Position numbers and translations under genes: made by a program. The notes under the pieces were generated by a model. It saw only the letters and a list, made by a program, of their open reading frames with translations, did not search any database and was not told the origin of the DNA. DNA of 64,000 nt, taken from the NCBI RefSeq assembly GCF_015330165.1, contig NZ_JADDXT010000002.1:1812663-1876662 (forward strand), given 5' to 3'. Positions 36,038-39,378 of the stretch are shown one piece after another. Every line of letters starts with the position of its first letter. Position 1 is the stretch's first letter. Origin of the DNA: Zobellia roscoffensis. GTDB taxonomy: Bacteria; Bacteroidota; Bacteroidia; Flavobacteriales; Flavobacteriaceae.

Positions 36038-37642
36038 TTAATATATGGTTTTACCGTCTTTGTCTTTAAAACGGTATTCAAGATACGTATACGCGTCTCT
36101 AGGTTGTATTTTAATCCATTTTTTGTGTTCTAAGAACCACTTAGAACGCATGGAAGGAAAGCCTTTAGTAATGTAGGCCGCGATAAACGGATGAATGTTA
36201 AGTGTAATTCCGTTATCTTTCTTAGGACCTTTTAAGAGCTTTTCAAGGTCGGCGTTAATTTTGTCTATCAAAACAATTGGGGCTTCAATTTCTTTCCCAT
36301 TACCATTCGGATTTACCTCGGTAGTTTTGATATTCATTTCGGGCCGTACCCGTTGCCTTGTAATCTGTATAAGTCCAAATTTACTTGGAGGTAATATTTT
36401 GTGTTTTGCACGATCATCTTTCATCTCATCCCTAAGATGATCAAAAAGCTTTTTACGGTGCGGCGCTTTTACCATGTCAATAAAATCAACAACAATAATA
36501 CCGCCCATATCACGCAAACGCAATTGTCGGGCTATTTCTGAAGCTGCCAGTAAATTCACCTCTAAAGCGGTGTCTTCTTGATTTTTGGCCTTGTTAGAAC
36601 GGTTACCACTGTTTACATCTACAACGTGTAGTGCTTCCGTATGTTCTATAATAAGATAAGCGCCTTTACTCATACTGGCGGTTCGGCCAAAAGAAGTTTT
36701 TATTTGTCGCTCAATTCCAAATTTTTCAAAAATAGGAACAGAAGAATTATACAGTTTAACTATGGATTCCTTTCCAGGTGCAATTTCTAGCAAGTAATCT
36801 TTGATTTGCTCATAAAGGGTTTCATCATCAACATTGATTCCTGTGAAAGAATCATTGAAAATATCCCTAAGGATGGAAGATGCCCTGTTGAGTTCAACCA
36901 ACACTTTTGAAGGTGTGTGAGCCTTGTACAATTTTTTACACATTGTTGACCATTTAGCCAACAAATTTTCTAGGTCTTTGTCTAGTTCCGCTACTTTTTT
37001 GCCTTCGGCAACTGTTCTTATAATGACGCCGAATCCTTTAGGTTTAATACTTCTTACGAGTATTTTTAACCTTTCTTTTTCTTCGCTACTTCCTATTTTT
37101 TGAGATACGGAAACACGATCAGAAAAAGGTACCATTACCAAATAACGCCCAGCTATAGAAAGCTCGGAGCTAATTCTTGGTCCTTTGGTTGAGATAGGTT
37201 CTTTAACGATTTGAACCAATAACGACTGATTTGCTTTGATGACGTCTGTGATTACGCCATTCTTGTCAATATCTTTTTCGAATGGAAAGTTGGCAAGTGA
37301 GTAATCTGTAATCTTATTGGTACTCACGCCCTTTATGAATTTAAGCATAGTGGCCAATTGTGGGCCAAGGTCATGATAGTGCAGAAACGCATCTTTTTCA
37401 TAACCAACATTTACAAAAGCTGCGTTTAGACCGGTGACCGGTTTACGAACCTTTGCTAAGAAAATATCACCAACGGAAAAATCGTTGTTGTCTTCTTCTT
37501 TATGCAATTCAGTGAGCTTTCCATCTTTTAGGAGTGCAAAATCGACGGCATCAGAACTAGATCTTACGATTAATTCTCTATTCACCTGAATGTATTTGTA
37601 TTTGCCAACACTTAATATTAAGTAGGCAAACAGATTAAACAA
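36038..37642 (-). CDS. rng: Ribonuclease G/E family endoribonuclease.
   Basis: S1 domain (NRELIVRSSSDAVDFALLKDGKLTELH) and DNase-I-like catalytic region (VVDVNSG). The start may be the GTG at 37585. Confidence 0.85.
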   Translation of the reverse strand: MFNLFAYLILSVGKYKYIQVNRELIVRSSSDAVDFALLKDGKLTELHKEEDNNDFSVGDIFLAKVRKPVTGLNAAFVNVGYEKDAFLHYHDLGPQLATMLKFIKGVSTNKITDYSLANFPFEKDIDKNGVITDVIKANQSLLVQIVKEPISTKGPRISSELSIAGRYLVMVPFSDRVSVSQKIGSSEEKERLKILVRSIKPKGFGVIIRTVAEGKKVAELDKDLENLLAKWSTMCKKLYKAHTPSKVLVELNRASSILRDIFNDSFTGINVDDETLYEQIKDYLLEIAPGKESIVKLYNSSVPIFEKFGIERQIKTSFGRTASMSKGAYLIIEHTEALHVVDVNSGNRSNKAKNQEDTALEVNLLAASEIARQLRLRDMGGIIVVDFIDMVKAPHRKKLFDHLRDEMKDDRAKHKILPPSKFGLIQITRQRVRPEMNIKTTEVNPNGNGKEIEAPIVLIDKINADLEKLLKGPKKDNGITLNIHPFIAAYITKGFPSMRSKWFLEHKKWIKIQPRDAYTYLEYRFKDKDGKTIY

Positions 37643-37725
37643 TAATTGAAGCGAATTACCTGAATTCGCCGAGATTTTCTGTAATCTCTATGTCAATGAA
37701 CATATGGGGTGAAAAAACAAGCAAA

Positions 37726-37747
37726 GGGGTTGAAAAATTTCAACCCC
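37726..37747 (-). terminator. Hairpin terminator downstream of the small basic ORF on the minus strand.
   Basis: GGGGTTGAAAAATTTCAACCCC perfect 8 bp stem, followed on the minus strand by a T-rich run (TTTGCTTGTTTTTTC). Confidence 0.5.
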
Positions 37748-37753
37748 TAGCAA

Positions 37754-37843
37754 TTATTTTTTCTTGTGTCGGTTAGCTCTCCTGCGCTTCTTGCGCTTAT
37801 GGGTAGCTACCTTATGTCTCTTTCTTTTCTTACCACTCGGCAT
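37754..37843 (-). CDS. Unannotated 29-aa ultra-basic peptide, resembling ribosomal protein bS22.
   Basis: Hand translation of the minus strand gives ATG...TAA = MPSGKKRKRHKVATHKRKKRRRANRHKKK. It is not in the ORF track because it is too short. It lies between HU and its terminator. Confidence 0.5.
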   Translation of the reverse strand: MPSGKKRKRHKVATHKRKKRRRANRHKKK

Positions 37844-37868
37844 AAAATTCTACTTTAAGTTAGTATAT

Positions 37869-38159
37869 TTATTTTACTTGTACGTTGCTTTTGACACCTT
37901 CTACAAAAACCTTGGCAGGCTTAAATGCAGGAATATTGTGTGCCGGTATTTTAATTGTAGTGTTCTTACTAATGTTCCTTCCGGTTTTTTCGGCTCTTGT
38001 TTTAATGATAAAACTACCAAAACCGCGAAGATAAACATTGTCACCACTTTCCAAAGAAGATTTCACCTCTTCCATAAAACTTTCAACTGTGGCCTGCACA
38101 TCACCTTTTTCAATTCCCAGCTTGTCTGAGATCTTCGATACAATTTCTGCTTTCGTCAT
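37869..38159 (-). CDS. hup: Histone-like DNA-binding protein HU.
   Basis: MTKAEIVSKI...RGFGSFIIKTRAEKTGRN... HU/IHF fold with the arm motif. 96 aa. Confidence 0.9.
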   Translation of the reverse strand: MTKAEIVSKISDKLGIEKGDVQATVESFMEEVKSSLESGDNVYLRGFGSFIIKTRAEKTGRNISKNTTIKIPAHNIPAFKPAKVFVEGVKSNVQVK

Positions 38160-38337
38160 CTTTCGTGTTAAATTTTCAGTATAATTTTTTTGGGATGCAA
38201 ATATATAAATTAAAATTAATCTTTCGTGCTAAAGGGTTAATTTTAAGTCGTTCACCTTCACTTTTCAATTTATGCCTATTCTTGGGTATGCATATCATTT
38301 AATAAACAATTAATTTCGTGCCATAGCAGTTACAAAA

Positions 38338-39378
38338 ATGACATTTTCAGAGCGAATTCTTGTTTGGTATAAAGTAAATAAAAGAACCTTGCCGTGGAGG
38401 AGCACAAGGGACCCATATAAGATATGGCTTTCTGAGATTATGTTGCAGCAAACACGGGTGGTTCAAGGTACTCCGTACTACTTAAAGTTCATTCATAATT
38501 ACCCTAAAGTACATGATCTTGCAAGCGCTTCCGAGGAGGAAGTTTTAAAGCTTTGGCAGGGTTTGGGCTATTATTCAAGAGCACGAAACTTACATGCTAC
38601 GGCTAAGATGGTAGTTGGTGAATATGGGGGTAAATTTCCTGATACCTATAAAGAATTACTGTTGCTCAAAGGAGTGGGGGACTATACGGCAAGTGCAATT
38701 TCATCTATTTGTTTTGATAGGCCTGAAGCAGTGGTAGATGGTAATGTTTATAGGGTTTTGTCACGTTATTTTGGAGTTGATTTACCCATTAATAGTACCG
38801 AAGGTGTTAAATATTTCAAAAAGTTAGCCAAGGAGGTCATGAATGTGCAAAACATTCGTGATTATAACCAAGGAATTATGGAATTTGGTGCCATTCAGTG
38901 TTCGCCAAAAAGTCCAGATTGCAACATATGCCCTTTGAATGAAAGTTGTGTAGCGCTACAAACTAATAAGGTGGCAGAGCTCCCGGTAAAGTTGAAAAAG
39001 ACTAAAGTCCGCAATAGATACTTCAATTATGTGGTTTTTATATCGGAACGAGGGGAAACAATACTCGAACAACGAAAAGGTAAAGGAATATGGCAAAATC
39101 TTTGGCAATTTCCACTTGTGGAGTCAGATAGTGAACTTTCAAAACCTGCTTTGGAGCGGGAATTAAGTACTTTATATTGTAATACTGAAGTGGTTTCTGT
39201 GGATAAGTTTAATACAGATGCTATTGTTCATAAGCTATCGCATCAACATTTATATACTACATTTTGGATCGTGCATACAAAAGGTGGTCTCAAAGAGAGT
39301 ATTTCGTTTGAAGACGTTGAGAACTACCCTGTACCCGTTCTTATTGCTGAGTTTTTAGATCGGTTTGGAAAGAAGTAG
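38338..39378 (+). CDS. mutY: A/G-specific adenine DNA glycosylase.
   Basis: HhH-GPD (LLKGVGDYTASAI), FeS cluster loop (C-X6-C-X2-C-X5-C: CSPKSPDCNICPLNESC) and a C-terminal NUDIX-like domain. Confidence 0.9.
   Translation: MTFSERILVWYKVNKRTLPWRSTRDPYKIWLSEIMLQQTRVVQGTPYYLKFIHNYPKVHDLASASEEEVLKLWQGLGYYSRARNLHATAKMVVGEYGGKFPDTYKELLLLKGVGDYTASAISSICFDRPEAVVDGNVYRVLSRYFGVDLPINSTEGVKYFKKLAKEVMNVQNIRDYNQGIMEFGAIQCSPKSPDCNICPLNESCVALQTNKVAELPVKLKKTKVRNRYFNYVVFISERGETILEQRKGKGIWQNLWQFPLVESDSELSKPALERELSTLYCNTEVVSVDKFNTDAIVHKLSHQHLYTTFWIVHTKGGLKESISFEDVENYPVPVLIAEFLDRFGKK

Follow-up and report, generated by a model that had tools for sequence, protein, structure and literature searches.

Identity of a 29-codon open reading frame downstream of hup

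The region between the gene for an HU family DNA-binding protein (hup) and the RNase G gene of Zobellia roscoffensis holds an open reading frame of only 29 codons, which raises the question whether so short a frame encodes a protein and, if so, which one. The frame was analyzed within a stretch of 64,000 nucleotides of this genome (contig NZ_JADDXT010000002.1, positions 1,812,663 to 1,876,662), hereafter called the window, and all window coordinates below are counted from its first letter. Three genes in the window are concerned:

37869..38159, minus strand: gene for the HU family DNA-binding protein, 96 aa (Pfam PF00216 Bac_DNA_binding, E = 9e-28)
37754..37843, minus strand: gene assigned to ribosomal protein bS22, 29 codons plus TAA (28/29 identity to 7JIL chain 5; codon-difference counts in 80 loci)
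36038..37585, minus strand: gene for a Rne/Rng family ribonuclease, RNase G (TIGR00757, E = 6e-121), with a likely GTG start at 37585 (VNRELIV...)

A preliminary description, made from the DNA letters without database searches, had pointed to the minus-strand frame as the gene of a bS22-like ribosomal protein. Translation of the window reproduced its ATG (37843), its TAA (37756..37754) and its peptide (MPSGKKRKRHKVATHKRKKRRRANRHKKK). The peptide has a length of 29 aa, a size of about 3.6 kDa, 59% K+R, a pI of 12.0 and a C-terminal KKK. Its K, R and H residues add up to 20 of 29 (69%), which corrects the 72% given earlier. A phmmer search of all PDB chains with this peptide returned three matches, all of them over the full length: chain 5 of 7JIL, the 2.8 Å cryo-EM structure of the Flavobacterium johnsoniae 70S ribosome (Jha et al., 2021; PMC7797042), with 28/29 identical residues (E = 4e-11); chain 10 of 9I5V, the bS22 protein of P. 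gingivalis (83% identity, E = 3e-8); and chain V of 8FMW, named '30S ribosomal protein bS22', from Borrelia burgdorferi (71% identity, E = 2e-6). The same three entries were found when a profile of eight variants was used in hmmsearch (E = 3e-16 to 1e-13). Judged by this similarity, the open reading frame is a bS22 gene, orthologous to a ribosomal protein already known. The match to the F. johnsoniae chain also bears out the earlier belief that bS22 occurs in Bacteroidota ribosomes. Since the sequence is nearly identical to the published F. johnsoniae bS22, the peptide finding is already known and holds nothing new.

Domain databases did not recognize the peptide. NCBIfam models (bTHX included) and Pfam both returned no family at E ≤ 10. 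This includes the Pfam model COX24_C (PF08213), so that the proposed check with an AURKAIP1/COX24-like HMM came out negative. The P. gingivalis bS22 protein reached E = 0.26 and 11.7 bits against COX24_C, below the gathering threshold of 23 bits, in a scan in which the composition filters of HMMER may mask low-complexity matches. Exact look-up of the 29-aa peptide and of four 30-aa variants in a collection of 15 billion proteins found none of them; a length cut-off is probably the cause, and this absence is uninformative on annotation.

Conservation of the peptide and of the gene order

Relatives were collected with a peptide-pattern scan using one genome per species. At least 244 were found, and the best 80 by identity, all of them Flavobacteriales, were examined. 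The peptide is identical over all 29 residues in 58 of these 80 loci, across Flavobacteriaceae and Weeksellaceae, including such distant genera as Chryseobacterium, Kordia, Winogradskyella and Aequorivita. Within the first 28 codons, the 81 sequences compared comprise 75 distinct DNA versions that translate into five peptides, and the numbers of variable columns at codon positions 1, 2 and 3 are 8, 2 and 27 of 28. Relative to the window, the 80 loci display 1015 synonymous and 21 non-synonymous codon differences at DNA identities down to 71%, a contrast that is somewhat inflated by the choice of loci by peptide pattern and identity rank. The third-position pattern is unambiguous despite this selection. 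Frame-disrupting indels, which the preliminary description had named as evidence against a gene, were sought in the 80 related loci and none was found. The pattern of substitutions indicates that the bS22 frame is under strong purifying selection.

The gene order is conserved as well. HU lies directly upstream of bS22 in all 80 loci, RNase G directly downstream wherever the contig reaches far enough, and MutY is usually found in divergent orientation upstream of the HU-bS22-RNase G genes. The position after hup, whose conservation had been suggested as a check, is thus kept in every related locus. The N-terminus of RNase G (VNRELIV...) is also kept in relatives. Among the retrieved genomes the closest is that of an Ulvibacterium sp. 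MAG, with HU 99% and RNase G 92% identical. One contig labelled 'Lachnospiraceae bacterium' (L071, CAVBJB010000018.1) carries a MutY-HU-bS22-RNase G locus typical of Flavobacteriaceae, with an HU protein 93% identical to that of the window; this contig is probably mis-binned or a contaminant.

Probable co-transcription of hup and bS22, and the hairpin at the bS22 stop codon

Outside the coding sequences, three elements were recognized around hup and bS22:

38198..38205, minus strand: sigma-A '-7 box' (TAnnTTTG) TATATTTG, likely hup-bS22 promoter, the sole TAnnTTTG on this strand in 37500..38400
37844..37868, minus strand: A-rich spacer and translation initiation region, 25 nt, with no Shine-Dalgarno sequence
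37711..37748, minus strand: intrinsic-terminator-like hairpin (10-bp stem and 4-nt loop, 37748..37725) with a U-rich tail (37724..37711)

The distance of 25 nt between the HU stop and the bS22 start had been noted before and was confirmed (37868..37844). In relatives this spacer measures 9-83 nt, mostly 24-31 nt, and an A-run is kept at about -10 to -18. Translation of bS22 would start from this A-rich initiation region without a Shine-Dalgarno sequence. Seven loci of the Ulvibacterium/Kriegella/Flagellimonas/Allomuricauda group (L058 (3981-4000), L035, L007, L016, L023, L034, and L055) possess a Shine-Dalgarno-like AAAGGAG(A) or AAAGGAAGAG at 7-13 nt before the bS22 start, where the window has AAAGTAGA. 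In Bacteroidota, strong Shine-Dalgarno sequences are reported mainly before rpsU and rpsR, and their occurrence elsewhere is unusual.

No sigma-A -7 box (TAnnTTTG on the minus strand) was found between hup and the RNase G start. In F. psychrophilum, a near-identical TTTATATATTTGCA precedes a strong mapped sigA transcription start site (TSS) 35 nt upstream of hupA (PMC9723704, supplementary file 3). In that species, the interval from hupA to cafA (RNase G) is covered by two 'new transcription segments' (131 and 253 nt), one segment boundary falling about 131 nt past hupA; at the hupA stop there is a weak 5' end that lacks a promoter motif, and no other TSS is listed for this interval (PMC9723704). 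By its size and position, the 131-nt segment would correspond to an unannotated bS22 gene plus hairpin. We infer from the motif that TATATTTG acts as a promoter in Z. roscoffensis, from which hup and bS22 are most likely co-transcribed, a view partly supported by the TSS map of F. psychrophilum. The single -7 box before hup, together with the TSS and, as indirect support, the segment boundary of F. psychrophilum, suggests that most hup-bS22 transcripts end at the hairpin and that the remainder read through to the RNase G gene.

The perfect 8-bp hairpin of the preliminary description is real as a core (GGGGTTGA/TCAACCCC), and the full stem extends to 10 bp, five of which are GC pairs. The complete stem-loop reads AGGGGTTGAA-ATTT-TTCAACCCCT and is followed by the T-rich tail TTGCTTGTTTTTTC. 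Its folding energy is -18.9 kcal/mol (z = -4.9 relative to 200 dinucleotide shuffles), and as a GC-containing stem-loop directly before a U-tract it has the form of a rho-independent terminator. A stem of at least 7 bp is present at this position in 66 of the 81 sequences, compared to 18 expected (maximum 30) in shuffles. In most Flavobacteriaceae, a stem GAAAAAGUAGUU-loop-AACUACUUUUUC overlaps the stop codon of bS22, such that its 5' arm, AAA-AAG-TAG, consists of the last two lysine codons and the stop (L058:4079-4115, L002, L007 and about 55 other loci). Relatives that end bS22 with TAA have another AAAAAGTAG copy 2-9 nt downstream as the 5' arm, and Weeksellaceae have only small 6-bp hairpins at this position. 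The window differs from its relatives in that their usual stem (AAAAAGUAG/CUACUUUUU) is swapped for an unrelated GC-rich hairpin in the same place, which begins 5 nt past the stop. This replacement by a different sequence argues that the structure matters and not the sequence. The hairpin and U-tract most likely end, or stabilize the 3' end of, most hup-bS22 transcripts, and read-through would run into a structured leader and then into the RNase G gene. More speculatively, the nearness of the hairpin to the stop means that translation of bS22 may modulate termination.

The same arrangement could be taken to mean that the frame is primarily a regulatory upstream open reading frame (uORF). Since the hairpin lies within a few nucleotides of the stop or is even built from the last codons, a ribosome terminating there would melt it, and whether transcription reads through into the leader of RNase G would become linked to whether the peptide is translated. 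Both the overlapping AAA-AAG-TAG arms and the short distances in loci with a TAA stop, that of the window included, agree with this explanation, as does the lack of room for a promoter between hairpin and leader, where F. psychrophilum has no TSS. However, the peptide sequence is kept far beyond the needs of a regulatory uORF, the protein is physically present in the ribosomes of F. johnsoniae (PMC7797042), and the hairpins of Weeksellaceae are small. We therefore consider it improbable that regulation is the primary function of the frame; such a role would come in addition and is not exclusive, as the peptide could still be bS22.

Probable placement in the ribosome and comparison with known bS22 proteins

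The assignment to bS22 implies a defined place in the ribosome. In the F. johnsoniae structure, a previously unassigned 30S density with side-chain density was built de novo and assigned to Fjoh_1533, a 30-aa hypothetical protein with a pI of 12.7 that is stated to be highly conserved in Bacteroidetes. The protein lies between 16S h44 and h45 and touches 23S H70, and was named bS22 because it occupies the same site as bS22 of M. smegmatis (PMC7797042). In 70S initiation complexes it was observed with its C-terminal lysines directed toward the 50S subunit; isolated 30S subunits did not show it (PMC13000457). The P. gingivalis protein has been modelled at the same h44/h45 site with the H70 contact (PMC12123416), and the B. 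burgdorferi protein in the same pocket (PMC10618245).

The window peptide resembles F. johnsoniae bS22 in length, charge and C-terminal lysine run besides the identical residues, and the HU-bS22-RNase G order is shared with Flavobacterium species (L072-L080). The two proteins differ in that F. johnsoniae has A where the window has R21, and in that the window protein is, with 29 instead of 30 aa, one C-terminal lysine shorter. Given the 97% identity to the F. johnsoniae protein, the window peptide presumably occupies the h44/h45 site too. There it would form a short bent helix inserted between 16S h44 and h45, beneath the platform in the vicinity of the decoding centre; the C-terminal lysines of the peptide would reach 23S rRNA helix H70, thereby providing an extra intersubunit contact. 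The P. gingivalis and B. burgdorferi proteins belong to another order and another phylum, respectively, and the Borrelia gene (bb0822) differs further in its GUG start and in being unannotated. Given their full-length similarity, the Bacteroidota and spirochaete bS22 peptides constitute one sequence family; Borrelia bS22 is reported to resemble F. johnsoniae bS22 more than that of M. smegmatis (PMC10618245).

The relation to actinobacterial bS22, which the preliminary description had put forward, is supported with a caveat. According to the literature, the proteins of Mycobacterium smegmatis, M. tuberculosis and Cutibacterium acnes share the pocket, similar size, charge and bent-helix fold. 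Sequence similarity went undetected: neither phmmer nor hmmsearch of PDB sequences returned an actinobacterial bS22 chain at E ≤ 10, although such chains exist in the PDB, for example in 5O61 (PMC12123416). The equivalence to actinobacterial bS22 therefore rests on published structural superposition and position. Mitochondrial mS38 (AURKAIP1/COX24, PF08213) and eukaryotic eL41 are structural analogs in the equivalent rRNA pocket (PMC12123416, PMC10618245), and neither was retrieved from the PDB with the peptide or the eight-variant profile.

Sequestration of the anti-Shine-Dalgarno sequence does not need bS22 (PMC7797042, PMC13000457). Deletion of bS22 in M. smegmatis yields a viable strain that is more sensitive to kanamycin, via the contact of bS22 with the h44 backbone (bioRxiv 10.1101/2023.03.31.535098). 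As bS22 adjoins the aminoglycoside site in h44, and M. smegmatis is sensitized to kanamycin when it is lost, the presence of bS22 is of importance to models of how Bacteroidota translate and how drugs act on them.

A function outside the ribosome, as a protamine-like nucleoid peptide or as a DNA-binding peptide associated with HU, is suggested by the extreme positive charge and by the location next to HU in all loci, with which the gene is probably co-transcribed. Orthologs have been resolved in the rRNA pocket of three bacterial ribosomes and no link to DNA is apparent, which makes this function very unlikely. That the frame arose by chance in a purine-rich intergenic spacer or in the hup 3' UTR and yields no protein, as its shortness, its low complexity, its lack of Pfam and NCBIfam matches and its absence from the protein collection (possibly due to a length cut-off) might suggest, is refuted to near certainty by variation almost exclusively at third positions, by identical peptides from DNA that has diverged to 71% identity, and by the bS22 matches in the PDB, where a near-identical peptide has side-chain density in cryo-EM maps. 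As a whole, the observations are best explained by a bS22 gene whose product is placed at h44/h45, which is most likely co-transcribed with hup and most of whose transcripts would end at the hairpin, and we hold this explanation with high confidence.

Annotation status and visibility in proteomics

The frame had been described as one that gene callers miss. This holds for B. burgdorferi, in which the ortholog is unannotated, and not for F. johnsoniae and P. gingivalis, in which hypothetical proteins are annotated; whether the gene is called depends on the pipeline, and the ortholog of F. psychrophilum is apparently unannotated. Detection by mass spectrometry is problematic as well. In an in-silico digest of the window peptide with trypsin, the longest product has five residues, and in Borrelia bS22 was the sole ribosomal protein missed by mass spectrometry, though visible in the map (PMC10618245). 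Absence from ribosome mass-spectrometry data, which had been proposed as evidence against the peptide, is therefore a misleading sign. As bS22 is real and yet often left out by gene callers and protein databases, and as tryptic proteomics is blind to it, the locus merits the annotation '30S ribosomal protein bS22', and the value of the peptide finding itself lies in annotation quality.

Naming in the PDB is inconsistent. The sequence cluster of 7JIL chain 5 comprises 7JIL, 9OZ9, 9OZN, 9OZZ and 9P0E, and two molecule names, '30S ribosomal protein S22' and '50S ribosomal protein L38', are in use for this one sequence. In the paper describing 7JIL, bL38 is another protein, Fjoh_4981 (PMC7797042), so that at least one entry of the cluster is apparently mislabelled and the 'L38' label must stem from the naming of another entry.

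A structured leader upstream of the RNase G gene

The hairpin and the start codon of RNase G are separated by a structured leader of about 125 nt, in which the following parts were distinguished:

37583..37704, minus strand: structured RNase G leader (alignment, RNAalifold, covariance model)
37701..37687, minus strand: 5' block GTTCATTGACATAGA, invariant in the alignment
37688..37671, minus strand: hairpin P1 (alignment, RNAalifold)
37669..37651, minus strand: hairpin P2 (alignment, RNAalifold)
37644..37633, minus strand: conserved block TATTGTTTAATC (alignment)
37632..37599, minus strand: hairpin P3 (alignment, RNAalifold)
37585..37583, minus strand: GTG start of RNase G

The 5' block, (C)GTTCWTTGA(M)A or, written differently, GTTCATTGA, shows no variation in any of the Flavobacteriaceae loci (about 63 of 80), and Weeksellaceae lack it. 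Its core 9-mer GTTCWTTGA is non-coding and occurs directly after the hairpin in dozens of genera. A covariance model of the leader, built from 16 close sequences, gave one match per locus, always at the leader, in 39 of 81 sources, 23 of which lie outside the training set (window 37583..37704, minus strand; L058:4117-4240; L034:4123-4250; and 36 others). On an alignment that was fitted to this model and hence favours the structure, 91.7% of the paired cells are standard pairs compared to 33-50% with slid partners, the covariation score is 0.598 compared to at most 0.105 with slid partners, a value that none of 500 shuffles reached, and all 24 pairs of P1-P3 display compensatory double changes. 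Compensatory changes in P1 and P2 are already seen in a plain MAFFT alignment analyzed with RNAalifold, and the single-sequence minimum free energy fold of the window recovers P1, P2 and P3. In Flavobacterium spp. (L066-L080), P3 is enlarged by short tandem-like repeats amounting to 60-130 nt, such as TTTTAGTT and CCATTAC units; these leaders reach 210-260 nt, and most of the L066-L080 loci fall below the threshold of the covariance model.

Pairing of the 5' block with the start codon of RNase G in a long-range helix, as proposed by RNAalifold, was rejected as unproven. A double change was present in only one of eight pairs, and the duplex did not exceed control start regions in stability, with a median energy of -4.9 kcal/mol compared to -3.6 kcal/mol for the controls, 28% of which were as good. 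Pairing of GTTCWTTGA with the RNase G start is non-specific, and F. psychrophilum has no TSS at this block.

Searches against Rfam 15 gave no match at E ≤ 1 in 37300..38400 and none at the gathering score in the whole window, and literature searches for an RNase G/E leader in Bacteroidota turned up nothing specific. The leader looks undescribed so far. The RNase E 5' UTR elements, rne5 of Enterobacteria and rne-II of Pseudomonas, are likewise conserved multi-hairpin leaders immediately in front of RNase E/G family genes. They differ in sequence, architecture and phylum, and their Rfam families do not match the Flavobacteriaceae leader. In E. coli, rne is subject to autoregulatory cleavage. The leader is a candidate for a new cis-regulatory RNA of the Flavobacteriaceae RNase E/G homolog, and together with the hairpin that overlaps the stop codon it is the only element of this locus that may be new. 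We tentatively suggest, as a possibility with somewhat less than even chances, that in Flavobacteriaceae hup, bS22 and the RNase G gene form one transcription unit in which a terminator overlapping or abutting the stop could sense translation of bS22 and the three-hairpin leader of about 125 nt with its invariant GUUCWUUGA block could control RNase G synthesis, for instance by autoregulatory cleavage. These bacteria have a single RNase E/G homolog, and the leader in front of its gene is apparently transcribed only through the bS22 terminator. It may thus be a handle on the regulation of RNA decay, which is little studied in this phylum, and be of more research interest than the peptide.
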